DNA of 11,509 nucleotides from Hadesarchaea archaeon (lineage in GTDB: Archaea > Hadarchaeota > Hadarchaeia > Hadarchaeales > Hadarchaeaceae): the NCBI GenBank assembly GCA_030619825.1, contig JAUXAS010000025.1, forward strand, positions 1-11,509. Reading direction: 5' to 3'. A program made the position numbers and the translations under genes. The notes under the pieces were generated by a model that searched no databases, had not been told where the DNA came from, and saw nothing but the letters and a program-made list of their open reading frames with translations. This document shows, piece after piece, positions 1 through 11,509 of the stretch. Each line of letters opens with the position of its first letter. The stretch's first letter is position 1.

Positions 1-288
1 TTCCAAGACGCTGTATGATTTCTGAAAAATCCCGCTCGACAATGCACACGCCCCCGCTACGACCACAACTTTGGGCTCCTTCAGCTTGGCGTAGACTTCT
101 TTTAGCGAATCCAACATCTTCATCGTCACGACCCCCACCACAATAAGTACGTTCGCCTGTTCAGGTTCCTCCACAATCTTCGTCCTGAGTTCCCCGATGC
201 CGAACCGCGTAGCCAGCACGCTCAATACCTCAATGTCACAACCGTTACATGACCCGATGTTCAAGCGATAAACTCCGATTTCGCTCAT
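1..288 (-). CDS. Group 4 [NiFe]-hydrogenase small subunit (NuoB/MbhJ/EchC-like), 3' end outside the window
   Basis: Not in the ORF track. Manual translation from ATG at 288: MSEIGVYRLNIGSCNGCDIEVLSVLATRFGIGELRTKIVEEPEQANVLIVVGVVTMKMLDSLKEVYAKLKEPKVVVVAGACALSSGIFQKSYSVLE. It has the GSCNGCDIE and GACA motifs and an ATGA overlap with the large-subunit stop (285-288). Confidence 0.92.
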   Translation of the reverse strand, partial: MSEIGVYRLNIGSCNGCDIEVLSVLATRFGIGELRTKIVEEPEQANVLIVVGVVTMKMLDSLKEVYAKLKEPKVVVVAGACALSSGIFQKSYSVLE

Positions 289-1421
289 TTTAATCGCCTT
301 AGCTCATCTAGACTTATCTTTCTACTTCTACCGGTTCTCTCGTCCACCACAGTGATGCGGTTGGTGCAGGATATGCACCGGTCCAAGCTCTCCAATATGG
401 GCGGGAGATTGGCCAGTTTTTCCCCTACCAGCATCTCCACAACGGCGGGATTGTTTACATAGGTGGGGGGCCTGAGTTTGATGCGCTCAGGATAGTTTGT
501 CCCGTTCAGTCTAGCATAGTAGATTAGCTCCCCCCGAGGCGCCTCCACTCGGCTGAAGTCCTCCCCGACCGGCGGCTTCCCCAACTCCGCGCGTATCTCA
601 CCCTCCGGCATGCGGTCGATCAGCTGTCGAACTAATTTTATACTTTCAAAAGTTTCCCTCGCCCGCACCAATGCCCTGGAGAAGACATCACATCCGTTCT
701 CCGTCGGTACATCAAAATCAACCTCCTGGTAAGCGGCATAGGGGTCGTCTTTTCGGATGTCGCTTTTGATACCAGAAGCTCTCGACACAGGCCCCACTAC
801 TCCATACGCTCTGGCCTTATCCTTCGGAAGCAGCCCTATCCCTGAAAGTTTCGGTGCAGCGTCTTTCAAAGCTTTCATAATGTCGTCAGAAAGTTTCGTG
901 AGGTCATCCGTCAGGGTCTTGACTTTGACGAGTATCCCTCCTGACACATCACGCCTGACCCCGCCCAAGTTATTTATCGAGAAGTGTACTCGGTTGCCGC
1001 AAATGGGCTCTAACAGGTCCATCAGTCTTTCGCGTGTATCGAGAACCTGGATTAGGTGCCCGTCGTCGTGCAATGCATGAAAGAGCAGCACGAACCACAT
1101 GTAATGGCTGTGTAACCGATCCATCTCGAAGACCAGAGATCTGATGTAATTCGCCCGTTGGGGAATCTCCGCGCCGAAGATTTTTTCTACAGCTTGACAA
1201 TAAGCGGTGGAGTGGGCTTGGGAACACAGCCCACACACACGCTCGGCAAGTAGAACATCTTGACTGAGGGATTTTGACTCCATTAGACGCTCGATGCCGC
1301 GGTGTGTGTATCCTTGCTCGATACCGACATCGATGATTTTGCCATTGCGCATGGTCACCTCGTATATCTCTGGCTCCAGATTCAAGGGGTGATATGGGCC
1401 TATCTTCATGACCTCAGTCAT
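285..1421 (-). CDS. Group 4 [NiFe]-hydrogenase large subunit (NuoD/MbhL/EchE-like)
   Basis: Motifs GPYHP..LEP, GYTHRGIE, L1 ERVCGLCSQAH, EAPRGEL and L2 DRCISCTNR, followed by a C-terminal extension. All four Ni-ligating Cys are present. ATG at 1421 is preferred (GAGGA about 10 nt upstream, 1 nt after the hdrB stop); TTG at 1430 is the alternative start. Confidence 0.93.
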   Translation of the reverse strand: MTEVMKIGPYHPLNLEPEIYEVTMRNGKIIDVGIEQGYTHRGIERLMESKSLSQDVLLAERVCGLCSQAHSTAYCQAVEKIFGAEIPQRANYIRSLVFEMDRLHSHYMWFVLLFHALHDDGHLIQVLDTRERLMDLLEPICGNRVHFSINNLGGVRRDVSGGILVKVKTLTDDLTKLSDDIMKALKDAAPKLSGIGLLPKDKARAYGVVGPVSRASGIKSDIRKDDPYAAYQEVDFDVPTENGCDVFSRALVRARETFESIKLVRQLIDRMPEGEIRAELGKPPVGEDFSRVEAPRGELIYYARLNGTNYPERIKLRPPTYVNNPAVVEMLVGEKLANLPPILESLDRCISCTNRITVVDERTGRSRKISLDELRRLK

Positions 1422-1422
1422 T

Positions 1423-2289
1423 TTACCCAATCCTCGCTACTAGTTGTGATACGGGGCTTCGGTGAAACTCAAGTGACAATTCTTTCGACGGCGCACCAAA
1501 TGCCAGCGCCAAGAGCTCGACCAAGTGCAAACATGGGATCGAGAACTTGGCACTGTACCTTCTGAGGGCGAGTTGCCCTGATTCAAATTGAACATTACAC
1601 GCAGGGCAAACCACCACGATTCCATCGACCCCTATATGTTGATAACGCTCCAGTTTTGGAAGCAAGTTGTGTTTAAGCGAAAATTCTTCGTCCACATGAG
1701 ATGTCGGGAAACCACAGCACAGTTGGTCGACGTCGGAGCGGACGACCTCAGCTCCCGTAGCACTTACTAGCTCTTCGAACTGTTTAGGCTTCCTCCAAAT
1801 ATCTCTGCCGTTCTCTTCTCTGAAGAGGTGGCAACCGTGATGTACGGCAAGTTTCAATCCTAGTGGTTTTTTTACTTGATTTTTTATCGCTTCAATCCCG
1901 ACATCCTCGTGGAGAACCTCAACGACATGCCTGACATTTATCGTCCCGTTATATTTCCTTCCCACCTTGGCCAAGAGTTCATTTATCTCCCTACTGGTTT
2001 CCCCCCGCTTCATGAACTCGTTGGCCTCCCAGAGTGTCTCGTAACAACCGTTACACAACACCACGACATCTAGGCCTTGCCCTTCCGCTATGCTCAGATT
2101 CCTTGCTGACATGGATAGCGCGACCTTTCTGTCCATCAAGCGTGCTAGAATTGGGTCCGGGCAGCAGGTGTAGCCCGTCATCTCCGCAATCTCGAGCCCG
2201 AGTGAATTGAAGACCTTGTGCGTGGCAAGCTCAGCGCTCGGAAGCCGCTGAGGGATCATGCAACCCAAGAAAAGCGCGTATTTCTTCAC
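1423..2289 (-). CDS. hdrB: Heterodisulfide reductase subunit B (two CCG domains)
   Basis: Two complete five-Cys CCG motifs: FLGCMIP...TCCPDP...LCNGCY and HHGCH...LCCGF...VCPACN. 288 aa, MKKYALFLGC N-terminus typical of HdrB, GTGA overlap with the upstream gene. Confidence 0.92.
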   Translation of the reverse strand: MKKYALFLGCMIPQRLPSAELATHKVFNSLGLEIAEMTGYTCCPDPILARLMDRKVALSMSARNLSIAEGQGLDVVVLCNGCYETLWEANEFMKRGETSREINELLAKVGRKYNGTINVRHVVEVLHEDVGIEAIKNQVKKPLGLKLAVHHGCHLFREENGRDIWRKPKQFEELVSATGAEVVRSDVDQLCCGFPTSHVDEEFSLKHNLLPKLERYQHIGVDGIVVVCPACNVQFESGQLALRRYSAKFSIPCLHLVELLALAFGAPSKELSLEFHRSPVSQLVARIG

Positions 2290-2957
2290 TTTTTCACCCC
2301 CCTCAGTTTCTTCCGCTTCCAGTCATAGCCAGCCTGCCTGCTGAAGTTCGTCTGCCTGATGAGTTCGTGAACCTCTTTAAGCTGGGACTCGTTCGAATAG
2401 CTGGCCGGCGGTTGTGGTGGAAGTCCCGCTTCCACCCGCCTTCGTTTCATTAAGGAGGATATAGGCGCGGTGGCCCCGACGGTAATAACAGCTTCTGCAA
2501 CCGGGCCGATTTCGTCAGGGAGTTTGGATTTGAAGGGCTTGCCCAATGGAAAAGTGCCCTCCGGCAATTTGTCCGATAAGACCAGATGTCCCGGTTTGGG
2601 ATGATCTCTGAATCTTACCCCGCACAGCTCTGCTGCCTCGTTTTCTGCCCATTCCGCTGTAGGGGTCAGGTCAGCTACAGTATCGATCTCGGGTTTCTCT
2701 TTCCCCAATTTCACTCTCAACACTACGACTTTACCCTCCAAATCAAAATGGTACAGAAGGTCTATGTCCAGCCCCGCATCGACAGCAGCTATAATGATTA
2801 ACCTCGCTCCCTTGCAGAGCAAGGTCTCAGCGGCTTTCCTTATTATGTCCGGAGCTATTTCGGCCGACACCTTTCGCACTCGAGGTGTGACCACACTTAA
2901 GAGTCCATCTGGGATGTTTTTCTCCAAGAGTTCAACTATCTCGGCTTCCTCCATCAT
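2286..2957 (-). CDS. NuoC/MbhK-like hydrogenase subunit fused to an HdrC-C-terminus-like tail
   Basis: The N-terminal ~145 aa has complex I 30-kDa-subunit motifs (VD...LLYHF, AEWAENEAAELCGVRFRDHP, FPL). The C-terminal ~77 aa is extra. Start placed at ATG 2957 (ATGA overlap with the upstream stop, GGTGA SD-like motif nearby) rather than 3035. Confidence 0.85.
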   Translation of the reverse strand: MMEEAEIVELLEKNIPDGLLSVVTPRVRKVSAEIAPDIIRKAAETLLCKGARLIIIAAVDAGLDIDLLYHFDLEGKVVVLRVKLGKEKPEIDTVADLTPTAEWAENEAAELCGVRFRDHPKPGHLVLSDKLPEGTFPLGKPFKSKLPDEIGPVAEAVITVGATAPISSLMKRRRVEAGLPPQPPASYSNESQLKEVHELIRQTNFSRQAGYDWKRKKLRGVKK

Positions 2958-3427
2958 CTCACCCGCAAATAGCGGCTCCGTGCGAACTCGAGCGCTTCGG
3001 CACGGGTTCCAACCCTGATCGCTTGAGGGGAACAATACTTGGCGCAGTTCGGGTCACCATCGCAGAAATTGCACTTGGTTGCGATACGGTGTTCCTCGTC
3101 GAACCACGCTGCGGCGATTGGACAAGCGTAGGTACAGGAGCGGCAACCAGTACACTTCATGGGGTTTATCATCACCCATCCCGTGGCTTCGTCCTTGGTG
3201 ATAGCATCAACCGGGCAAGCGGCGGCGCACACAGGGTCCTCGCAGTGCAGACAGTTGGTCGCCTCGCGCGCAAATTTCTGATCGTCAATGAAAACATGGA
3301 TGTGGGATTTCTCAGGGTTGAGGGTGCCGAAGTTCTTGTAGGCACACGCAATCTCACAGTACCGGCAACCTGTACATCGCTCCGAGTCGTAAATCAGCAC
3401 GAGCTGCTCGGCTTTGGGCTTCTCCAA
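2954..3427 (-). CDS. 4x[4Fe-4S] iron-sulfur protein (DmsB/HycB/CooF-like)
   Basis: 16 Cys in four groups: CTGCRYCEIAC, CLHCEDPVCAAACP, CTGCRSCTYACP, CNFCDGDPNCAKYC. TTG start with AGGGG upstream. Confidence 0.92.
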   Translation of the reverse strand: MEKPKAEQLVLIYDSERCTGCRYCEIACAYKNFGTLNPEKSHIHVFIDDQKFAREATNCLHCEDPVCAAACPVDAITKDEATGWVMINPMKCTGCRSCTYACPIAAAWFDEEHRIATKCNFCDGDPNCAKYCSPQAIRVGTRAEALEFARSRYLRVR

Positions 3428-3459
3428 TAACGTCGCCCCTTTAGCCGAAGGGGGGCTTA

Positions 3460-3477
3460 TGTGCTTAAGCCTTTCGC
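3460..3477 (-). promoter_or_regulatory. Putative BRE/TATA promoter of the hydrogenase-HdrB operon
   Basis: Minus strand reads GCGAAAGGCTTAAGCACA: purine-rich BRE (CGAAAG) followed by a TTAAG TATA-like box about 40 nt upstream of the TTG start. Confidence 0.5.
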
Positions 3478-3478
3478 T

Positions 3479-3489
3479 AAAAAAAGAAA
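3479..3489 (-). terminator. Putative oligo-T terminator after the R15P isomerase gene
   Basis: TTTCTTTTTTT on the minus strand immediately after the TAA at 3491-3493. Confidence 0.55.
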
Positions 3490-3490
3490 T

Positions 3491-4429
3491 TTAAATGAAC
3501 TCTTCGCCCGGCCTCCACTCGAAGAGCTCCTGGATCATCGTGTAAGCTGCCGAGGGTGGGATTATGCCCCGCTCGGTTATAATGAGGTCAATGTAATCGG
3601 GCGGCGTGACATCAAAGACCGGGTTACGAATTTTCAAGCCTGGGAAGCGCTTAGGGTTGATGATCTCCTTGGGAGAGCGCTCCTCGATCTCGACAAGCCT
3701 CCCCACGAGCGTCCCAGGATGGAACTTGTAACTCTCTGCGGCGACGAAGAATAACACTCGAGCCTCGTGAGCGGTGAGGGCGATCTGTGCGGTCCCTATC
3801 TTGTTGATCACCGCTCCATTTGCCGCGATGCTGTCCGCACCAACGATGACCTTGTCAATGTCTCGGATGAAATAGCGCACAGCTGAGTCAACGATGAGGG
3901 TGGTGGGAATGTCAGCTTTTTTCAGGTCTCGTACACTTATCAAACCCTGTCGGCTCGGACGAGACTCTGTGACGAATACTTGGATGCGCTTGCCCTTCTC
4001 GAAAGCCGTCTTGATTACCGCTAGCGCGCTGTGGCTGTTGCAGTGAGTAAGCACTACATCGCCATCAGAGATGCGACGCGCGCCGATTTCACCTATTCGC
4101 TCGACAGCTTTCTTTGAATCTCGAATAAACTCGTCCACACGAGAGATGACTCCCCTCTGAAGCGTCTGCAGGTCGGCCCCTCTCGCTCGCTTCGCACCAA
4201 GCGTGACGTAGCGGATCGCGTTGGGAAGCGAGACCGCTGTTGGGCGGGTAGCTAGCAAAAGTTTTGAAACGCGATCGAGCTCCCTCGCGAACTCAGCTGG
4301 AGTCTTGGCTCGAGTCGTCTTTGTAGTGATTTTCAAGGCCCGGGCCGCAGCGCGAGCGATCCTTCCGGCGCCGCGTATGCGCATCGTTTGGATATCCCGC
4401 GCGATTTGCTTGACCTCATCGTGCGCCAT
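3491..4429 (-). CDS. e2b2: Ribose-1,5-bisphosphate isomerase (eIF2B-like family)
   Basis: MRIRGAGRIA, TRPTAVSLPNA, LTHCNS (catalytic Cys), ESRP, VGADSI (catalytic Asp), NKIGT, NPVFDVTPP and ITERG match the archaeal R15Pi pattern. Confidence 0.9.
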   Translation of the reverse strand: MAHDEVKQIARDIQTMRIRGAGRIARAAARALKITTKTTRAKTPAEFARELDRVSKLLLATRPTAVSLPNAIRYVTLGAKRARGADLQTLQRGVISRVDEFIRDSKKAVERIGEIGARRISDGDVVLTHCNSHSALAVIKTAFEKGKRIQVFVTESRPSRQGLISVRDLKKADIPTTLIVDSAVRYFIRDIDKVIVGADSIAANGAVINKIGTAQIALTAHEARVLFFVAAESYKFHPGTLVGRLVEIEERSPKEIINPKRFPGLKIRNPVFDVTPPDYIDLIITERGIIPPSAAYTMIQELFEWRPGEEFI

Positions 4430-4463
4430 GATTTCCCCTAATTTCTATCTATACCTGTACCCA

Positions 4464-4478
4464 AACTTAAACCAATCG
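4464..4478 (-). promoter_or_regulatory. Putative TATA box for the R15P isomerase gene
   Basis: Minus strand CGATTGGTTTAAGTT, with TTTAAG at 4471-4466 about 37 nt upstream of the ATG. AGGGG SD-like motif before the start. Confidence 0.4.
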
Positions 4479-4483
4479 GGATT

Positions 4484-4714
4484 TCACTTGGGAAGGCGGC
4501 GCCGCAGCTCATTGAGGAAAATCTGCCCATCTGTTTTGCGTGTGGTGTCAGCTTCGGCTGAAATCGCCTGCCTGAGCCCCTCGATGAACACCTCAATACC
4601 TGCACTCTCACCAAGCATTCGTTCGATTAGGCTTCGGAGCTCCTGTGGATAAGCAAGGTATGGCATGACCGATGAGAATGAATCTCGAACGAGTTTTGCC
4701 TCAGCTTCCTGCAT
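4484..4714 (-). CDS. Hypothetical small helical protein (76 aa)
   Basis: Fills the gap between the Lrp gene and R15Pi, starts 8 nt after the Lrp stop with an AGGTG SD, and has an amphipathic helical pattern. No recognised motif. Confidence 0.7.
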   Translation of the reverse strand: MQEAEAKLVRDSFSSVMPYLAYPQELRSLIERMLGESAGIEVFIEGLRQAISAEADTTRKTDGQIFLNELRRRLPK

Positions 4715-4722
4715 TTCAGCAC

Positions 4723-5163
4723 CTAGAGGTTCAAAAGACGCTCCTTGATGGTTTCCATTGCCACGATAGTTCGGACGCTCTTCACCGAGTCGAATGACTG
4801 GATGCGGTCGTCAACGAACTTTTTCAAGCTTTCCACGTCGCGGGCACGTACCTTCAACATCAATCCATGGCCCCCCGTCGTGTGATGAAGCTCGCACACC
4901 TGGTGGCAGTGTGACAGCGAGCGGACGAGCTCGCGCATGCTCCTGCTATCGACATCGATGCTGACGAAAGCCATCACCCCATAGCCAAATTTTTGAGGGT
5001 CTATTAGCGCTGAATATTGTTTGATCAGACCGAAGCGCTCAAGCTGCTTGACCCGTCGCCTCACCCCAGAAGTGCTGAGGCCGACCTCGCGCCCCATCTT
5101 GCGCAGTGAAACATGTGCGTCATCGCTCAGCATCTTTAAAAGTTTCATGTCGACGCTATCCAC
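4723..5163 (-). CDS. Lrp/AsnC family transcriptional regulator
   Basis: MDSVDMKLLKMLSDDAHVSLRKMGREVGLSTSGVRRRVKQLERFGLIKQY HTH, then an IDPQKFGY linker and RAM domain. GTG start with GGTGGTGA SD. Confidence 0.93.
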   Translation of the reverse strand: MDSVDMKLLKMLSDDAHVSLRKMGREVGLSTSGVRRRVKQLERFGLIKQYSALIDPQKFGYGVMAFVSIDVDSRSMRELVRSLSHCHQVCELHHTTGGHGLMLKVRARDVESLKKFVDDRIQSFDSVKSVRTIVAMETIKERLLNL

Positions 5164-5207
5164 GCTTCACCACCCAGCCAGCCTTGTAATTAGTTGGTGC
5201 GCTTTGG

Positions 5208-5223
5208 TTATTTAATTTTTGCG
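5208..5223 (-). promoter_or_regulatory. Putative BRE/TATA promoter of the Lrp gene
   Basis: Minus strand CGCAAAAATTAAATAA: A-rich BRE followed by TTAAATA. Confidence 0.55.
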
Positions 5224-5239
5224 GGAAAATTTTTGTGCG

Positions 5240-6751
5240 TCAAAGCTGAATTACTTTTAGTTTTTTCCCTACATCTTTGCACGCTTCAACGAGTGATTTA
5301 CCCCATCGCCGCTCGTCGTTGAACAGTAGAACTCGTTCGTAGTGCCCACCATACCTCTCGAGGAAGCGAGAGAGGCCTTCGGCCACCGATTTTATCTGCA
5401 TCGCGTCAAGCTCGCGGGGCACCTGAAACTGCCCGAGCGGGTATATCTCCTCGAGCTCCTCGGGGACGGCGCCAAATGGAGGTACGAGCCTCACGAGGTG
5501 GGTTCGCTCAGGTTCTTCGAGCTTCGGCCGCTCTTTCCCAAAAGCGGGCAAAAGCGCTAAGATGGGCAGCTGGGGCGGCTCATATCGCCCATTAAGTCTA
5601 CTCCAGGAACGCACGACCTCTGGGCGATTCACCGACTCCTCACCGAGGTAGCAGAATGCCGAGGGCTTGGTCACGGGATCAAACCTCTCGAGGAAATCCC
5701 GATACCTCGCCAACCTCCGAAGCCCATCGAGCAGCCGCGGATGGGCACGACATCGCAGCTCAACGTGCTCTCCCAGACTTCCCTCCACGATTGCTTGGCG
5801 AATGCGCCGCAGTTCGCCAAAGGTAACATGAAGATTGTGCCTAGCCAAGAGCTTGACCCGTTCGTCCTGCGGAACACGCCTGAGCTCATCGGGTGAATGC
5901 TCCGCACAAATAGGGCACTCACATGGTAGGTAAGATAACTCCTCGAGGTGAAAGGTCCCCTCTGAAGTCATGTAACGCCCGTCACGTGCATAGAGCACGT
6001 ATGCAGCGGAGTCGAAGAGGTCGCAGCCCATCGCCACGGCGAGGGCGAACATCATGGGGTGCCCAGCGCCAAAAAGATGCGTGGGGCGATCGAGTGGCAG
6101 GTATTGCTTCGCAGTCATGACGAGATCGACGAGTTTCGCGTAGCGATATCCCTCCAGCAACTCGACGGGGCTTCCAATCGCGTGCAGTTGATAGTCGAGT
6201 TTCCCAACCTCGCGTGCGCTCTGGGCGACCAACTCGCTGAAGAGGCCCCCCTGCACCGGCCCGCACCACATCAACTTGGGATTAGACCTGAGTTCGACTG
6301 CTTGTCTGGCTCGCTCAAGCGTTATCCGCACCGTTTCGGCTGCACGCTCCTTGGTCGCTTGAACACCAGTCGGGACATCGAGGATAGTCGCGATATCTGG
6401 GGCAATCGCATCTTGGTAGCGCACGATTTCTTCAGGTGAAACTTCGACGTCCCCATAGCGCAGGATTTGGTAGCCGCCCGAGTCGGTCATGATTGGACCC
6501 TCATAGCTGAGCGCACCGTGAACCCCTTGCTTCGCGGCTTCCTCGCCGAAGTGACGAAGCATCAGGTAGGCGTTGGTCATCACCAGTTCAACGCCGAACT
6601 CGCGCCGCATCTGGTTGGGTGATAGAATTACGTCCAATGGATCGATGACAGGCATGAGGGTCGGGGTTGTCACATCGCCGTGGGGGGTGCTAAGTTTACC
6701 CACTCGACCCATGCCATCGCGGTACAAGATTTGGAAGATGGTATCGACCAT
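5240..6751 (-). CDS. tgtA: Archaeosine tRNA-guanine(15) transglycosylase, PUA-less form
   Basis: GRVGKL..PHG..TP.LMPV, TNAY, MTDSGGYQ (catalytic Asp), LDVP, VQGG, HLFGAGHPM, GCDLFDSAAY, Zn site CECPIC...HNL, and RCRAHP. Confidence 0.93.
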   Translation of the reverse strand: MVDTIFQILYRDGMGRVGKLSTPHGDVTTPTLMPVIDPLDVILSPNQMRREFGVELVMTNAYLMLRHFGEEAAKQGVHGALSYEGPIMTDSGGYQILRYGDVEVSPEEIVRYQDAIAPDIATILDVPTGVQATKERAAETVRITLERARQAVELRSNPKLMWCGPVQGGLFSELVAQSAREVGKLDYQLHAIGSPVELLEGYRYAKLVDLVMTAKQYLPLDRPTHLFGAGHPMMFALAVAMGCDLFDSAAYVLYARDGRYMTSEGTFHLEELSYLPCECPICAEHSPDELRRVPQDERVKLLARHNLHVTFGELRRIRQAIVEGSLGEHVELRCRAHPRLLDGLRRLARYRDFLERFDPVTKPSAFCYLGEESVNRPEVVRSWSRLNGRYEPPQLPILALLPAFGKERPKLEEPERTHLVRLVPPFGAVPEELEEIYPLGQFQVPRELDAMQIKSVAEGLSRFLERYGGHYERVLLFNDERRWGKSLVEACKDVGKKLKVIQL

Positions 6752-6801
6752 TACAACTTTAAATAATTCTTACAAAGACCTTCCGCTTAAAATCTGAAGG
6801 C

Positions 6802-8013
6802 TCAACAAACCGGGATTTTTCCTTCGGCGAGGTCCATGCAGAATTTGTCGATGTGCTCGAGTTCCACGTCTACCACTTCCGCTATCTTCCCCCGGACGCT
6901 CTCGATCGTGGTGCCAGGCTTCGTGATGACCCGGGCGACGGCGATCGCAGGGTCATCGATGGGTTTCCCTATCTGACTAACCAACCAAACGTAAACCTCA
7001 TTCAATCCCGAAACTTGACTGTAGATTTTATTCGCGATTCGGTGCGTGAGCAAATTGTAAATCTTGCCCACATGGCTAACGGGATTCTTGCCCGCCGCCG
7101 CCTCCGAGCCCACATGGCGGTTGAGTGGGATCACGCCGTTGGGACGATTGCCCCTCCCAACTTGACCTGAGTCCGCCCCATCAGCGCTCGTCCCAAGCAC
7201 GGTGAGGTAAACCCCTCCGACGCCCCGTCCACGTACATCAAGGGTGTTTAGATCGAGCGTGAATTTTTTGACATCAGAATTCTCCTCCACGAAGGTGCGC
7301 AGCCGCTCTAGGATCTCCCCCTTCTTCCTGAAGTAATCATCCTCGCTCTCCACGAATCGGTCAACGAAAGCCATCCCCAGGGTTAGATAGAGCTCGTCGT
7401 TCTTTCGAAACCCCATCACCTTTACGTCCTCACCAGACTCCGGGAACTCCTTCTTGAACTCCTTTGAGTTGAGGTAGCGCTCAGTCTTCAGTACTAACTG
7501 TTCGGTCCAAGTCATGGGCGCGTAGCTGACTGCAGCTGAAGTATCGTTAGCGCTAAACACCCTGCCCTTCCGCTTGAAGATATCAGTGAGTGCCGCAGAG
7601 CCGGGTCTGAGTTCTACCTGGTAGCGCATGTGCTTTTCCGGATCGACAAACCTCAAATTTTCTTTTACCCAATTCTTCGCCGCGTGAACCGCGATGTCCT
7701 TTACTGATATCCTAATCCCCTCAACCTCCTTGGTCGCCCGGTCTCCAAAGATCAAAAGCATCGGTTGCTTCACTTCGCCACCACCAAATCTCGTTTCGAC
7801 CTCTCCAGCGACGAGCAGCGACTTGTCGGCATTGTGGTGCATAATCGCGCCAAACTTTTTCAAATACTCCTTACTTAACTCGACTGAAACTCGATCCAAA
7901 ATCGCATCACATATAGAGTCGGGGTGCCCGAGGCCCTTTCGCTCAACAATCTCCAATTTCTGCTTCTCGAGAGGTTCCTGCTTGAACTCCTCGACGATTA
8001 TGTTTCGTGCCAA
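6802..8013 (-). CDS. mat: Archaeal S-adenosylmethionine synthetase
   Basis: VERKGLGHPDSICD, HHNADK, ANDTS, GEDVKVMG, YLTVLGTSA, DSGQVGRGNR, EAAAGKNPVSHVGKIYN and SQIGKPIDDP. TTG start. Confidence 0.96.
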   Translation of the reverse strand: MARNIIVEEFKQEPLEKQKLEIVERKGLGHPDSICDAILDRVSVELSKEYLKKFGAIMHHNADKSLLVAGEVETRFGGGEVKQPMLLIFGDRATKEVEGIRISVKDIAVHAAKNWVKENLRFVDPEKHMRYQVELRPGSAALTDIFKRKGRVFSANDTSAAVSYAPMTWTEQLVLKTERYLNSKEFKKEFPESGEDVKVMGFRKNDELYLTLGMAFVDRFVESEDDYFRKKGEILERLRTFVEENSDVKKFTLDLNTLDVRGRGVGGVYLTVLGTSADGADSGQVGRGNRPNGVIPLNRHVGSEAAAGKNPVSHVGKIYNLLTHRIANKIYSQVSGLNEVYVWLVSQIGKPIDDPAIAVARVITKPGTTIESVRGKIAEVVDVELEHIDKFCMDLAEGKIPVC

Positions 8014-8046
8014 GTTTACGCCTCGCGGATTTTCGGTCTGCGAGCG

Positions 8047-8078
8047 AGTTATTTATAGCTTTTGTTCAAAATATAACT
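8047..8078. promoter_or_regulatory. Divergent promoter region between mat and the HTH-CBS gene
   Basis: Minus strand AACAAAAG-CTATAAATA (BRE+TATA toward mat). Plus strand has TTTATA (8052-8057) and AATATAA (8070-8076). Contains the inverted repeat TTTTG-TT-CAAAA. Confidence 0.55.
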
Positions 8079-8098
8079 AGCAGGAATTGGCGATCTCG

Positions 8099-8680
8099 AT
8101 GCGAATTTTGAAACCATCCGAAGTGAAGGTGATGCGCACGAGGATGGGGCTTACCCAAGTGCAGCTGGCGGAACTGGCGGGCGTTACCCAAGCATACATC
8201 GCAAAGATTGAAGCCGGCACCGCAGACCCCCGAATCTCCACTCTCGAGAGAATCTCCAAGGCGCTCGAGCGGGCAACGACCGAGGAAAAGCGTGTGACCG
8301 TTGGGCAGATAATGGCCTCGCCAATAGTGGCCGTCAAGTCCGATGATCGGATAGAAAAGGCAATCCGTCTCATGAAATCCTACGATATCTCACAGCTACC
8401 CGTGCTCGATGGTGAAGCTCAAGTGGGATCAATATCTGAGGCGACGATCGTACACAAAATCGCCGCGGGTGAAAACATGCACAAGCTGCTAAGGTACAGC
8501 ATCAGCGAGATGATGGAGGGCCCGTTCCCGACGGTGGGCGAGGATGTCGATGTCGACGTCATCTACCCCCTGCTCGAACACGAACCCGCAGTCCTCGTTA
8601 TGGAACATGGGAAAGTGGCTGGGATTATCACCAAAGCTGATCTGTTCAAGCTAGCTGGAAAACCGCGAACTAAAAGCTGA
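8099..8680 (+). CDS. XRE-type HTH transcriptional regulator with C-terminal CBS pair (COG3620-like)
   Basis: R.RMGLTQVQLAELAGVTQAYIAKIEAGTADPRISTL HTH, then two CBS domains (ISQLPVLD..VGSISE; AVLV...VAGIITKADL). Start is ATG 8099 or TTG 8087. Confidence 0.92.
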   Translation: MRILKPSEVKVMRTRMGLTQVQLAELAGVTQAYIAKIEAGTADPRISTLERISKALERATTEEKRVTVGQIMASPIVAVKSDDRIEKAIRLMKSYDISQLPVLDGEAQVGSISEATIVHKIAAGENMHKLLRYSISEMMEGPFPTVGEDVDVDVIYPLLEHEPAVLVMEHGKVAGIITKADLFKLAGKPRTKS

Positions 8681-8729
8681 GCGTTCCTGATATTTTTATC
8701 CCTGACCCCCAGATTAGTAATGGTGTACC

Positions 8730-9443
8730 ATGGCTGAAGTGAGGGAAAGGATCGCGCGATGGATCGCCGGCGACATAACCATTTCCGACGACCCTGGGGA
8801 AGCCTTCAAGCGCTGGCGGGAGCGATTCGGGATGAGTCAGACCTTGCTCGCCAAGGTAATGCGCGTCTCCCCCTCGGTAATCAGCGATTACGAGGCCGGG
8901 CGGAGGAAATCACCCGGGGCCGCGACCATCAAGCGTATGGTTGACGCCTTCCTTAAGGTTGATGAGCAACAGGGCGGGAAGGTGTCCAATACCTTCGCCA
9001 AAGTGTTCGGCACCCAGTTGCCGCCCGATGTCGTGCTTGAAATCCGAGAGTTTGGCGAGCCTACCAATGGGAAGACCATCTGCAAAGCGGTCGATGGTGA
9101 TGTCGCCGCCAATAAGGACCTACTCAGCCAGAAGCTCTTCGGCTACACTATCATCGACAGCTACAAGGCAGTGTTGGGGCTCTCCGTCGACGATTTCAGA
9201 CGCCTCTACGGGCTGACCACCGAGCGGGCGCTGGTTTTCACCGGCGTGACGACGGGGCGTTCCCCCATGGTGGCAGTGAAGGTGATCGGGATAACCCCAG
9301 GGATGGTGATCTTGCATGGCGAGCTCAAACGCGTCGACGCGCTGGGGGTAAAAATAGCCGAGCTCCTGCGCGTTCCTCTCGTGACCTCGAGGCTGCCGTC
9401 CGTGGGCGACCTGCTCGAGGGGCTCCGGAAGTGTGCCCGCTAA
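8730..9443 (+). CDS. Archaeal HTH transcriptional regulator (COG1709-like, HTH plus DRTGG-like domain)
   Basis: [24 protein letters not shown]....[17 protein letters not shown], then [42 protein letters not shown]-like box at 8693-8700. Confidence 0.88.
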
Positions 9444-9465
9444 CCCCCAACGGCAATCGCCGATG

Positions 9466-9472
9466 TTTTTTT
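9466..9472 (+). terminator. Possible oligo-T terminator
   Basis: T7 run 22 nt after the stop at 9443. Confidence 0.4.
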
Positions 9473-9479
9473 CGACAAT

Positions 9480-9494
9480 CGAAAGGCTTTTATT
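9480..9494 (+). promoter_or_regulatory. Putative BRE/TATA promoter of the HMG-CoA synthase-thiolase operon
   Basis: CGAAAGG-CTTTTATT, with an AGGTGA SD at 9541-9546 before the ATG at 9554. Confidence 0.6.
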
Positions 9495-9553
9495 GCTCTC
9501 GCTTAAGCATAGACACAAAAATTGGTGTTCGAAATAAAAAAGGTGACTCACTG

Positions 9554-10600
9554 ATGGACGTTGGTGTAGTTGGCTACGGTGTTTACATCCCCAAGTACCG
9601 CATCCGAGTCGAGGAAATAGCTAAAGTCTGGGGGGACGACCCCGAGAGCGTCAAGCGTGGACTTTTGATCGAGGAAAAATCCGTCCCGGCACCCGATGAG
9701 GACACCGCCACCATCGCGGTCGAGGCCGCACGCAACGCTTTGAAACAGACCGGCATCGACCCGCATGACATCGAAGCGATTTACGTCGGCTCGGAATCCC
9801 ACCCATATGCGGTCAAACCCACCGCAACTATCGTAGCGGAGGCCATCGAGGCCACTCCAGACCTCACCGCCGCCGACTATGAATTCGCCTGCAAGGCTGG
9901 CACCGTGGGCATCCAAACCTGCATGGGGGCTGTCGAGGCTGGCATGATAAAATACGGCATGGCGATTGGGTCGGACACCGCCCAGAGCGCACCAGGGGAT
10001 GCCCTTGAATACACCGCTGCGGCCGGGGGTTGCGCCTTTATCGTGGGTAGGAACGGGAGCAAGACCCTAGCTGCGATCGAGGACACTTACTCCTACACTA
10101 CCGACACCCCCGACTTCTGGCGCCGGGAGATGCGGTCCTACCCGAAGCACGGAGGGCGATTCACCGGAAAGCCGGGCTACTTCAAACACGTACTCGCCGC
10201 GGCCAACGGCTTGCTTCGCAAGCTCCAGCTTACCCCTCAAGATTTCGCGCACGTGGTCTTCCACCAACCCAACGGAAAATTCCCCCTGCTAGCTGCCAAG
10301 GAGCTCGGCTTCTCGAAGGAGCAGGTGGCACCCGGTCTGCTGGTGTCTAAAATAGGCAACACCTATTCTGGATCGACCATGATTGGTCTCGCCGCGGTTC
10401 TCGACCAAGCCAAACCCGAGGAGCGAATCCTCGCGGTCTCCTATGGTTCAGGCGCCGGGAGTGATGCATTCAGCATCATCGTGCGCGACGGCATCGAGGG
10501 CAAACGGGATGCTGCGCCCAAGGTGCTTGACTACGTGGGTCAGAGGGTTATCATCGACTACGCAACCTACGCGAAATTCAGGAAGTTACTGGTGAAGTAA
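9554..10600 (+). CDS. Hydroxymethylglutaryl-CoA synthase (archaeal type)
   Basis: [44 protein letters not shown] (catalytic Cys), [23 protein letters not shown] and SYGSGAGSD. Start placed at ATG 9554 after AGGTGA, not 9431. Confidence 0.96.
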
Positions 10601-11509
10601 ATGCGCGATGTCGCAGTGATAGGTGTGGGCCTGACGAAGTTCGGCGAGCTCTGGGATGTTTCGTTCAGGCAGATGATGATGGAAGCGGGTGCCCGAGCGA
10701 TCGAGGATGCTGGAATCGACGGCAAACAAATCGATGCGATGTATGTAGGGAATATGTCCTCTGGACAATTTATCCGCCAAGAGCACATCTCCTCCATCGT
10801 CGCGGACCACGCGGGGCTCGTGCCCATTCCCTCAACGCGCGTCGAAGGGGCCTGCGCGTCGGACGGGCTGGCGCTCCGTCAAGCAGTGATCGCCGTGGCT
10901 TCAGGTATCCATGACATCATCGTTGCAGGTGGTATAGAAAAAATGACTGATGTGCTGACCGGACAAGCAACGGGAGCACTCGCGACCGCCGCCGACCAGG
11001 AGTGGGAGATATTCGTGGGCGCCACTTTCCCGGGCCTCTACGCGCTGATGGCTCGCCGCCACATGTACGAGTTCGGGACTACCGAGGAGCAGATGGCGAT
11101 GGTTGCGGTCAAAAACCACCACAACGCGTGCTTCAACACATGCGCGCAATATAAAATGGAAATAACCGTCGAAGATGTGTTGAAATCGCCGGTGGTTACC
11201 TCGCCCATAAAATTGCTCGATTGCTCCCCGATCACCGACGGCGCCGCCTGTGTGATTCTCGCCCCAGCGGAGAAGGCGCGGAAGTTCACCGATACCCCTA
11301 TCGTGGTCACCGGGACCGGGCAAGCGAGCGACACCATCTCGCTCCATGGCCGCTCCTCGCTCACGAGCATACGGGCTACCACCGAAGCGGCGCAGACGGC
11401 GTACAAGATGGCTCGTGTCAAGCCGGATGACATCGACCTCGTGGAAGTTCACGACTGCTTCACCATCGCGGAGATCATGGCGATCGAGGACCTAGGCTTC
11501 TGCAAGAAG
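10601..11509 (+). CDS. Acetoacetyl-CoA thiolase (archaeal SCP2-like), 3' end outside the window
   Basis: Not in the ORF track. Open frame from the ATG directly after the [25 protein letters not shown]...RVEGACAS (Cys85)...GGIEKMTD...[14 protein letters not shown]...VAVKNHHN...[10 protein letters not shown]...[20 protein letters not shown]. Confidence 0.95.

Follow-up and report, generated by a model that had tools for sequence, protein, structure and literature searches.

Genes for HdrB are commonly found in non-methanogenic archaea, and the disulfide on which their products act is a standing question. One such gene is embedded in a group 4-type [NiFe]-hydrogenase operon of a deep-sediment Hadesarchaea archaeon (assembly GCA_030619825.1, 0.99 Mb, 89% complete; hereafter the host genome), on the minus strand of contig JAUXAS010000025.1, which was analyzed at its entire length of 11,509 nucleotides (the window; contig C41). 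What does HdrB do within such an operon, from where would it receive electrons, and which disulfide would it reduce? On balance, we consider it probable that the product of the five genes is an H2:disulfide oxidoreductase that is soluble, does not pump ions, and does not bifurcate electrons, likely standing in for the NAD(P)-linked hydrogenase of group 3b. Since the operon provides neither a flavin nor a membrane arm, the complex would neither bifurcate electrons nor pump ions.

Enzymes of this general kind have been predicted before. Ehd, Ehe, Drh, Ehg, and an Ehd-like cluster grouping with Bathyarchaeia sequences are genome predictions described in excerpts of Kohtz et al. (PMC9723716), and the same HdrB-linked group 4 types are repeated in passages of PMC12700198 and bioRxiv 2022.08.18.504445. 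Because these include the same HycB-like/HdrC-arm/HdrB module, the original prediction, made from the window alone, overrated the novelty of the arrangement. What is new here is the mutual exclusion and slot exchange between the HdrB operon and group 3b operons. No purified HdrB-linked group 4 hydrogenase is described in the literature that we found; with five genes and no membrane subunits, the present form is the member most easily expressed and assayed, making the substrate question directly testable, and the exchange with group 3b points to which function to test first.

Gene order and integrity of the operon

The operon and its upstream elements comprise the following features, in order of transcription.

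3464–3476, minus strand: putative archaeal B recognition element (BRE)/TATA promoter, read from sequence
3435–3456, minus strand: leader motif over the ribosome-binding site, ahead of the TTG start, from an eight-locus alignment
2954–3427, minus strand: 4x[4Fe-4S] protein, 157 amino acids, 16 Cys, HycB/AorA-type (Fer4_11)
2286–2957, minus strand: NuoC::HdrC-arm fusion, 223 amino acids (PF00329 at amino acids 34–143)
2322–2516, minus strand: HdrC C-terminal arm within the NuoC fusion, amino acids ~148–212, cluster-free (TIGR03290 positions 83–142)
1423–2289, minus strand: HdrB (two PF02754 domains; TIGR03288, 267 bits)
285–1421, minus strand: group 4-type [NiFe] large subunit, 378 amino acids (PF00346 and PF00374)
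1–288, minus strand: small subunit, first 96 amino acids, cut by the contig end (PF01058)

Open reading frames and Pfam/NCBIfam matches bore out the five-gene order, the family assignments, and the junctions that had been read from the window, namely ATGA, GTGA, a 1-nt gap (or an 8-nt overlap from TTG 1430), and ATGA. That hdrB entered this cluster through a chance insertion or a misassembly is excluded: DNA contigs of two other studies cover positions 1–4110 and 1–3509 without a joint and extend beyond position 1, and the gene order is seen again in 8 of 40 relatives as well as in further genomes. Contigs from the RNA libraries of one study bridge the nuoC/hdrB junction (2107–2983 and 2001–2456), although these libraries may include DNA and the bridging does not by itself prove a single transcript; the parts that they leave uncovered (1–2000 and 3400–4600) are uninformative.

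A group 4 core without a membrane arm

The catalytic subunits are those of a group 4-type hydrogenase. The large subunit has the L1 (RxCxxC) and L2 (DxCxxCxxR) motifs of this group in a NuoD-type fold, here as RxCGxC and DRCxxCxxR, with both Ni-Fe motifs intact in 19/19 full-length orthologues, and its closest solved relatives are HycE (7z0s_E) and MbhL (6cfw_L). With HycE and Mbh it also shares a cleavable C-terminal extension, which is HycE-like and 23 amino acids long; HycI protease genes adjoin nine Bathyarchaeia-type loci, and one is found at the host's Mbh locus. NuoB-, NuoC-, and NuoI-type soluble subunits are likewise present, the NuoI part being seen in relatives only, as the contig ends within the small-subunit gene. 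In these relatives the small subunit, encoded by the last gene of the operon, has 285–301 amino acids and 15–18 Cys and consists of a NuoB/HycG domain fused with one of NuoI/HycF type. In the closest relative (L042), this subunit is 88% identical to that of the window where the two overlap; it has 290 amino acids and 16 Cys and matches MbhJ/HycG, then MbhN/NuoI. The same four kinds of soluble subunit are found in the soluble arm of formate hydrogenlyase (HycB, E, F, and G; 7Z0S) and in Mbh (6CFW), from which the operon differs by its lack of a formate dehydrogenase and of an HycC/D or Mrp arm and by an HdrB attached through NuoC.

Three minor observations concern these subunits. In each of the 13 full-length large subunits from Hadarchaeia, the second Ni-Fe motif (357–383) has DRC where DPC is usual, and those of Bathyarchaeia type read DPC. 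An Ehr-like loss of Ni-Fe ligands in the Bathyarchaeia large subunits was considered and rejected, the ligands being kept. In one genome (G016), a TnpB/Cas12f1-like gene of the IS200/605 type lies between the orthologous large- and small-subunit genes on the same strand (L032:7335–8795).

The operon is found in 15 of 66 Hadarchaeota genomes and in Bathyarchaeia-type genomes. A scan of the genome collection gave 40 hits and, from these, 20 full-length NuoC::HdrC-arm loci: 13 from Hadarchaeia, 5 from Bathyarchaeia, one from Baldrarchaeum, and one on a contig labeled Krumholzibacteriaceae. Across 401 sampled Thermoproteota, 58 genomes had an HdrB match at 1e-75, and 9 of the 20 loci fetched from these were of the soluble type; the best two loci fetched among 201 Asgard genomes were both membrane types. 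As a side note, the operon proteins of the locus labeled Krumholzibacteriaceae bacterium (L061) nest among Bathyarchaeia, by misbinning or transfer.

The membrane arm that belongs to the group 4 definition (NuoH plus an antiporter-like subunit) is missing from the complete soluble operons. The operon ends after the small-subunit fusion in 25/25 loci with a visible 3′ end (12 Hadarchaeia and 13 others, with five more loci cut by contig ends left out), and none of these 25 includes a gene for NuoH or NuoL. A five-transmembrane-helix gene following the operon at L086 was rejected as a hydrogenase subunit because it encodes a ZIP transporter. Furthermore, in all membrane types examined the small subunit is extended at its N-terminus (the extension ending in SPW or APW), as is NuoI, and both extensions are deleted in all soluble types examined; from complex I structures, we take these segments to face the membrane. 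The complex is thus predicted from its genes to be soluble, with no membrane arm, and the original suggestion that it would conserve energy if membrane subunits followed did not hold. A group 4 core would, on this sequence evidence, function without NuoH. Annotation pipelines name these large subunits membrane-bound hydrogenase or NADH-quinone oxidoreductase, and energy models of Hadarchaeia and Bathyarchaeia consequently probably miscount these enzymes as ion pumps.

A membrane arm might still be borrowed, with the soluble module docking in trans on that of Mbh and, like Ehd in its proposed role, coupling H2:disulfide turnover to ion pumping. A complete Mbh-like operon is encoded by the host (C80), NuoH is present in 11/15 carriers, and close relatives with the same NuoC::HdrC arm own NuoL and NuoH (L059, L131, L132, L134, L135, and L150). 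However, each of these 11 carriers has one NuoH, already partnered (Mbh), and NuoH was not found in the other 4/15, where no group 4 large subunit besides the operon's own was detected; these four genomes are 83–92% complete, and incompleteness could hide some NuoH genes. Combined with the deletion of the NuoB/NuoI N-terminal segments in all soluble types examined, this makes docking very unlikely. Separately, we note that four genomes (G014, G015, G017, and G044) yielded no NuoH, no group 3, and no second group 4 hydrogenase.

Proposed connection of HdrB to the hydrogenase

Two proteins of the operon are candidates for connecting the hydrogenase to HdrB. The first is the four-cluster protein, whose 16 Cys are invariant in 22/22 orthologues. 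It matches PDB entries 8c0z_C, 6x6u_B, and 7z0s_B, its closest solved relatives being Fe-S subunits of aldehyde oxidoreductases, and it precedes the HdrC arm and HdrB in the Ehd-, Ehe-, and soluble-type loci examined. We infer that this protein is the electron donor to HdrB, replacing the lost ferredoxin domain of HdrC. Its kinship with aldehyde oxidoreductase subunits would also fit a subunit that is open to ferredoxin or to a tungsten aldehyde oxidoreductase as a port, the complex mainly venting low-potential electrons as H2 or passing them to HdrB and bypassing the ion-pumping Mbh. The host encodes at least two full aldehyde oxidoreductases, and group 4 enzymes are usually H2-evolving (PMC11094006). 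Yet the position of the subunit ahead of the HdrC arm and HdrB in all types examined fits a fixed wire, non-pumping venting of ferredoxin would short-circuit the Mbh of 11/15 carriers, and the exclusion with an NAD(P)-linked enzyme (see below) would go unexplained; we consider an open port quite improbable.

The second protein is the NuoC fusion. A NuoC/HycE-N/MbhK domain makes up amino acids ~1–143; the AlphaFold model (predicted local distance difference test, pLDDT, 82) matches 7z0s_E and 6cfw_K, and the top 50 matches of a fold search with it were NuoC-type chains only. The 65-residue tail aligns gap-free with the C-terminal arm of solved HdrC proteins, with profile E-values of 2.5e-7 for 8rvu_c and 5.2e-6 for 5odc_C, and hhalign gives 96% against canonical Hadarchaeia HdrC and 91% against the stand-alone Ehd arm. 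No CxxC occurs in this tail in any of 21 orthologues. It had been noted that no stand-alone hdrC was visible, and indeed the fusion is the sole TIGR03290 match in the host genome; HdrC is nonetheless represented, since the fusion carries its C-terminal arm. This arm would serve as a clamp holding HdrB on the hydrogenase via NuoC. The "HdrC" of Ehd and Ehe is a stand-alone arm of 92–118 amino acids with 0–1 Cys, NuoC being fused to the large subunit, and in Ehd-type clusters it would then be merely a cluster-free clamp. A guess that EhdD is itself a NuoC::HdrC fusion was discarded, Ehd-order loci having a stand-alone arm of 111–118 amino acids and the NuoC-large subunit fusion.

Taken together, these features suggest a mechanism in which H2 would be split at the Ni-Fe site and electrons would travel through the NuoB cluster, two NuoI clusters, and four HycB-like clusters to HdrB's pair of non-cubane clusters and on to the disulfide, while the HdrC arm would clamp HdrB onto NuoC.

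The disulfide substrate of HdrB

The HdrB model (pLDDT 91) has a template modeling (TM) score of 0.92 to 5odc_B, and both the ten ligand Cys and a CCG[FY]P loop are found in 29/29 copies. CCG motifs have the spacing CX31-39CCX35/36CXXC, which occurs twice in HdrB; its TIGR03288 score of 267 bits is below the curated cut-off of 345. In the HdrB of 5ODR, the sulfonate of coenzyme M (CoM) binds G46 and G198, coenzyme B (CoB) binds R14, R201, and R240, and F233 lines the tunnel (PMC13261682, in excerpt). By alignment mapping, soluble HdrBs keep only R14 (29/29), and G46, the GAGGG loop, R201, F233, and R240 are changed in 29/29. In place of the loop stands G[FY]P, which Ehe and the membrane type also have, whereas Ehg and the canonical HdrB of Acr-bearing Hadarchaeota keep the loop.

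Genome content agrees with these changes in supporting the original reading, in which an H2:disulfide oxidoreductase does not bifurcate and may act on a substrate other than CoM-S-S-CoB. McrA was found in none of the 15 Hadarchaeota and none of the 10 Thermoproteota carriers; conversely, the operon is absent from the five Mcr/Acr-bearing Hadarchaeota, which have canonical HdrBC. HdrA is present in 2/15 carriers, in a search that scored at most 15 candidates per genome. In the host genome, for which such a check had been advised, ComA, MvhA, MvhG, and a second HdrC were not found, but an unlinked HdrA-MvhD fusion is present. We infer that the disulfide is one other than CoM-S-S-CoB.

The operon might nevertheless reduce CoM-S-S-CoB, made or imported, or form a bifurcating complex with the orphan HdrA-MvhD fusion on C21, as the HdrB fold and R14 are kept and that gene has no adjoining hdrBC in the host genome. 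The distributions of McrA and HdrA given above, together with the absence of the HdrC ferredoxin domain, which is HdrA's usual partner, render this highly improbable. HdrA supplied in trans was rejected for the carriers in general, only 2/15 having HdrA. In comparison with MvhAGD-HdrABC (5ODC, 8RVU), which shares the HdrB fold and the HdrC C-terminal arm, the operon lacks HdrA, MvhD, and the HdrC clusters, its hydrogenase is of group 4 rather than 3c, and its CoM/CoB contacts are altered. HdrB scores of the f2 family were inflated by three f2 proteins in the alignment; these were read from their loci as canonical HdrBC and not counted. The orphan fusion itself (host contig C21 of G000, L082:4337–6679) occurs without hdrBC or mvhAG and is divergent from acyl-CoA ligase genes and a gene for an 891-amino-acid Mo/W oxidoreductase.

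A distinct, predicted soluble branch of HdrB-linked hydrogenases

Which, if any, of the described types does the operon represent? Among the loci recovered, the nine-gene Ehd order occurred in four McrA-bearing genomes of Thermoproteota, the Ehg order in one, and the Ehe order in six, these labels being assigned here by gene order and McrA. Ehd (Methanomethylicia, EhdA-I) shares with the window a HycB-like protein, a Cys-free HdrC arm, HdrB, and the large subunit in this order, as well as the HdrB clade, but has an antiporter, NuoH, a small membrane protein, a stand-alone HdrC arm, separate NuoI and small subunits, a NuoC-large subunit fusion, a large subunit in another clade, and a methanogen host. 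Ehe (Culexarchaeia) and Ehd-like clusters share the CCG[FY]P-loop HdrB, the HdrC arm, the HycB-like subunit, and non-methanogenic hosts, yet all have NuoL and NuoH, and Ehe is adjoined by gcvH, SdhA-like, and HdrA2B2C2 genes. In the window, HdrB and an HdrC-like gene lie within the hydrogenase cluster, as in Ehd and Ehe; antiporter and NuoH genes are absent from its complete orthologues, and the large subunit falls outside the Ehd/Ehe clade. The operon is not Ehd, and the Ehd-order loci support the impression that its arrangement differs.

Drh (Methanocellales) shares the group 4-type core, HdrB, the lack of an ion antiporter, and a proposed direct H2:disulfide coupling (passages of PMC9723716 and PMC6046458). 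Compared by these descriptions only, it differs in its eight genes (drhB, H, hdrB, C, E, D, F, and G) as opposed to five and in its methanogen host, and it is termed "putative membrane-associated" in them. A third, membrane-bound type combines a NuoC::arm fusion like that of the window with its own NuoL and NuoH (L059, L131, L132, L134, L135, and L150); L133 has NuoH only. The membrane-type order is HycB-like protein, NuoL, NuoC::HdrC arm, HdrB, large subunit, NuoH, NuoI, and small subunit, and five of these loci (L132, L134, L135, L059, and L150) come from McrA-lacking Thermoproteota and Asgard.

Soluble large subunits form one clade (21/36 rows, support 100/100) apart from Ehd and Ehe (100/99) in a tree from which 13 rows were omitted as near-duplicates or long branches; in another tree, this clade took in 27 of 46 rows. 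HdrBs paired with a cluster-free arm, including those of Ehd and Ehe, likewise form one clade in a quick tree (41/56 rows; Shimodaira–Hasegawa-like approximate likelihood ratio test, SH-aLRT, 100), and the soluble HdrBs (27/56 rows, SH-aLRT 90) nest among membrane forms, which suggests that the membrane arm was lost. Judged by these sequence relationships, the operon appears to be a distinct soluble branch of the already-predicted HdrB-linked group 4 hydrogenases. In the literature searched, which excluded subscription papers, neither the form without a membrane arm nor its exchange with group 3b was found described; PMC6421429 makes no mention of Ehd, hdrB, or hdrC, nor PMC11291895 of HdrB.

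Mutual exclusion with group 3b hydrogenases

The distribution of the operon across Hadarchaeota gives a hint of its role. A group 3-type large subunit is found in 0/15 carriers versus 38/51 other Hadarchaeota (Fisher p-value 1e-7, overstated because kin are not independent), and five of five within-genus or within-family contrasts (g1, g2, g8, g9, and f4) agree (sign test, p-value 0.03). Eight of the 38 group 3 loci, picked across genera, were fetched, and all show the four-gene beta-gamma-delta-alpha layout; two were scanned, and their best matches are HydBGDA/Shy models, below the cut-offs. In 3 of these 8, the genes for ribose-1,5-bisphosphate isomerase and for a small EF-Tu-domain protein directly flank the 3b operon, with two further loci in the same neighborhood and three elsewhere, and this is the slot that the HdrB operon occupies in 9/15 carriers. 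Group 3b enzymes are described as H2/NAD(P)H redox valves (excerpts of PMC11094006). With the group 3b sulfhydrogenase (HydBGDA), the operon shares solubility, the chromosomal slot in relatives, and mutual exclusivity in Hadarchaeota, whereas its accessory subunits show no sequence kinship and it has no flavin or NAD(P) site and no group 3 large subunit.

Exclusion of this kind could be a by-product of cassette swapping at one slot, the enzyme being an H2:disulfide oxidoreductase with some other role. The two cassettes often share their flanking genes, neither is present in 13 genomes, and genera are mixed in the large-subunit tree, as under horizontal exchange. However, the operon lies elsewhere in G014, G059, and G060, which still have no group 3 enzyme, and 3b lies elsewhere in G013, G021, and G023, which still have no operon, leaving cassette swapping a rather unlikely account of the pattern.

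The lipoyl arm of GcvH as a candidate carrier

The H2 couple was computed at −414 mV at 1 bar and −296 mV at 10 Pa. Potentials of the candidate couples are about −290 mV for lipoamide, −320 mV for NAD(P), −234 mV for coenzyme A (CoA)-disulfide, and −140 mV for CoM-S-S-CoB, so that only a lipoyl-like couple permits two-way traffic with NAD(P)H. The reverse, thiol-oxidizing and H2-evolving direction that had been offered as an alternative is on these values thermodynamically open only for a low-potential dithiol, such as dihydrolipoamide, at low H2 pressure.

Gene neighborhoods suggest the same carrier. A gcvH gene with the lipoyl lysine motif lies directly ahead of 6/6 Ehe-type loci, and one lies two genes ahead in three membrane-type operons (L132, L134, and L135), with a CoA-disulfide-reductase-like flavoprotein gene between; GcvH has already been proposed as a partner for Ehe by Kohtz et al. 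(PMC9723716, in part), and the sHdr system of sulfur oxidizers cannot do without a GcvH homologue that binds lipoate (PMC10332631, in part). The host encodes LipS1 and LipS2 (over cut-off), a lipoate ligase, a CoA-disulfide-reductase-like flavoprotein, and GcvH in a glycine-cleavage operon; no Lpd-type gene was found in its genome. We tentatively rank the lipoyl arm of GcvH first among candidate electron carriers. The loop to NAD(P)H could be closed by the CoA-disulfide-reductase-family flavoprotein or by the glycine cleavage system, and the enzyme would work near equilibrium, taking up H2 when it is high and releasing H2 only at a few Pa. By extension, the membrane type is a candidate ion-pumping H2:lipoyl oxidoreductase. 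The full scenario is doubtful as a whole: a complex-I-type hydrogenase, having lost its membrane arm, would as a flavin-free soluble enzyme swap electrons between H2 and the GcvH lipoyl arm through HdrB, with the lipoyl-protein relaying H2, glycine cleavage, and NAD(P)H, group 3b being displaced across deep-sediment archaea and membrane-bound relatives pumping ions with the same couple.

GcvH-like genes near L056, L058, L123 (10680–11282), L124, and L126 were not counted, as the lipoyl lysine motif is missing; they lie close to hdrABC-mvh clusters of Bathyarchaeia-type genomes, and their products, mostly of 200 amino acids, have an additional N-terminal part.

With a different substrate class, the operon would encode a soluble sink, driven by H2, for sulfane sulfur or for a small-molecule disulfide (candidates are polysulfide, CoA-persulfide, CoA-disulfide, and AhpD-type protein dithiols), and would replace 3b in its sulfhydrogenase function and not in its NAD(P) one. 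The 3b exclusion fits such a sink equally, and group 3b has sulfhydrogenase activity (PMC9723716, in excerpt). CoA-disulfide-reductase-like and AhpD (CxxC) genes stand beside L033, L035, L055, and L130, and on the potentials above the reaction is downhill at any likely H2 pressure. Methanogen Hdr also takes non-native disulfides (PMC13261682, in part). Still, no conserved sulfur-transfer gene was found beside the operon, AhpD is near only 4/30 soluble loci, and without a membrane arm the reaction conserves no energy; we judge a sulfur sink unlikely, if worth keeping in view.

Several observations weigh against the preferred reading of an H2:disulfide oxidoreductase, with lipoyl-GcvH as first candidate carrier, in the place of group 3b. 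A lysine-motif gcvH adjoins 1/30 soluble-type loci (L060) and none in Hadarchaeia, the genome-wide co-occurrence of GcvH is not significant (13/15 versus 32/51, p-value 0.12), and the absence of Lpd is not specific, with 0/15 carriers versus 9/51 others having it (p-value 0.11); the host flavoprotein has one catalytic Cys and not the Lpd dithiol. As to the exclusion, 13 Hadarchaeota, 7 of them at least 85% complete, have neither enzyme, and in Bathyarchaeia-type genomes the operon is found together with hydrogenases of group 3c or of the NAD-linked group 3 kind, in some cases adjoining them (L056, L123, L124, and L126), so that exclusion is not universal. Finally, Ehd HdrBs of McrA-bearing genomes also lack the GAGGG loop, R201, and F233, and the solved M. 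marburgensis HdrB has Val at R240; the altered residues therefore do not prove a different substrate.

Leader region and remainder of the window

Upstream of the operon, a T-run (3479–3489) follows the ribose-1,5-bisphosphate isomerase gene, and directly past it lies the BRE/TATA-like motif, a similar one being found at equal distance in several Hadarchaeia orthologues. A sigma-70 promoter scan of the window, which is unsuited here, gave no match. The leader motif aligns across eight Hadarchaeia loci, several of which conserve the TTG start. Its fold in the window is no better than that of shuffled sequences (z −0.28), and by inspection the motif is not enriched ahead of other genes of the host genome; together with the TTG start, it could be a repressor site or a means of translational control.

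The remainder of the window (3491–11,509) is ordinary, with genes for ribose-1,5-bisphosphate isomerase, an Lrp regulator, tgtA, mat, two helix-turn-helix regulators, HMG-CoA synthase, and thiolase. A 76-amino-acid gene (4484–4714), with no Pfam/NCBIfam match, is conserved across Hadarchaeia between lrp and the isomerase gene.

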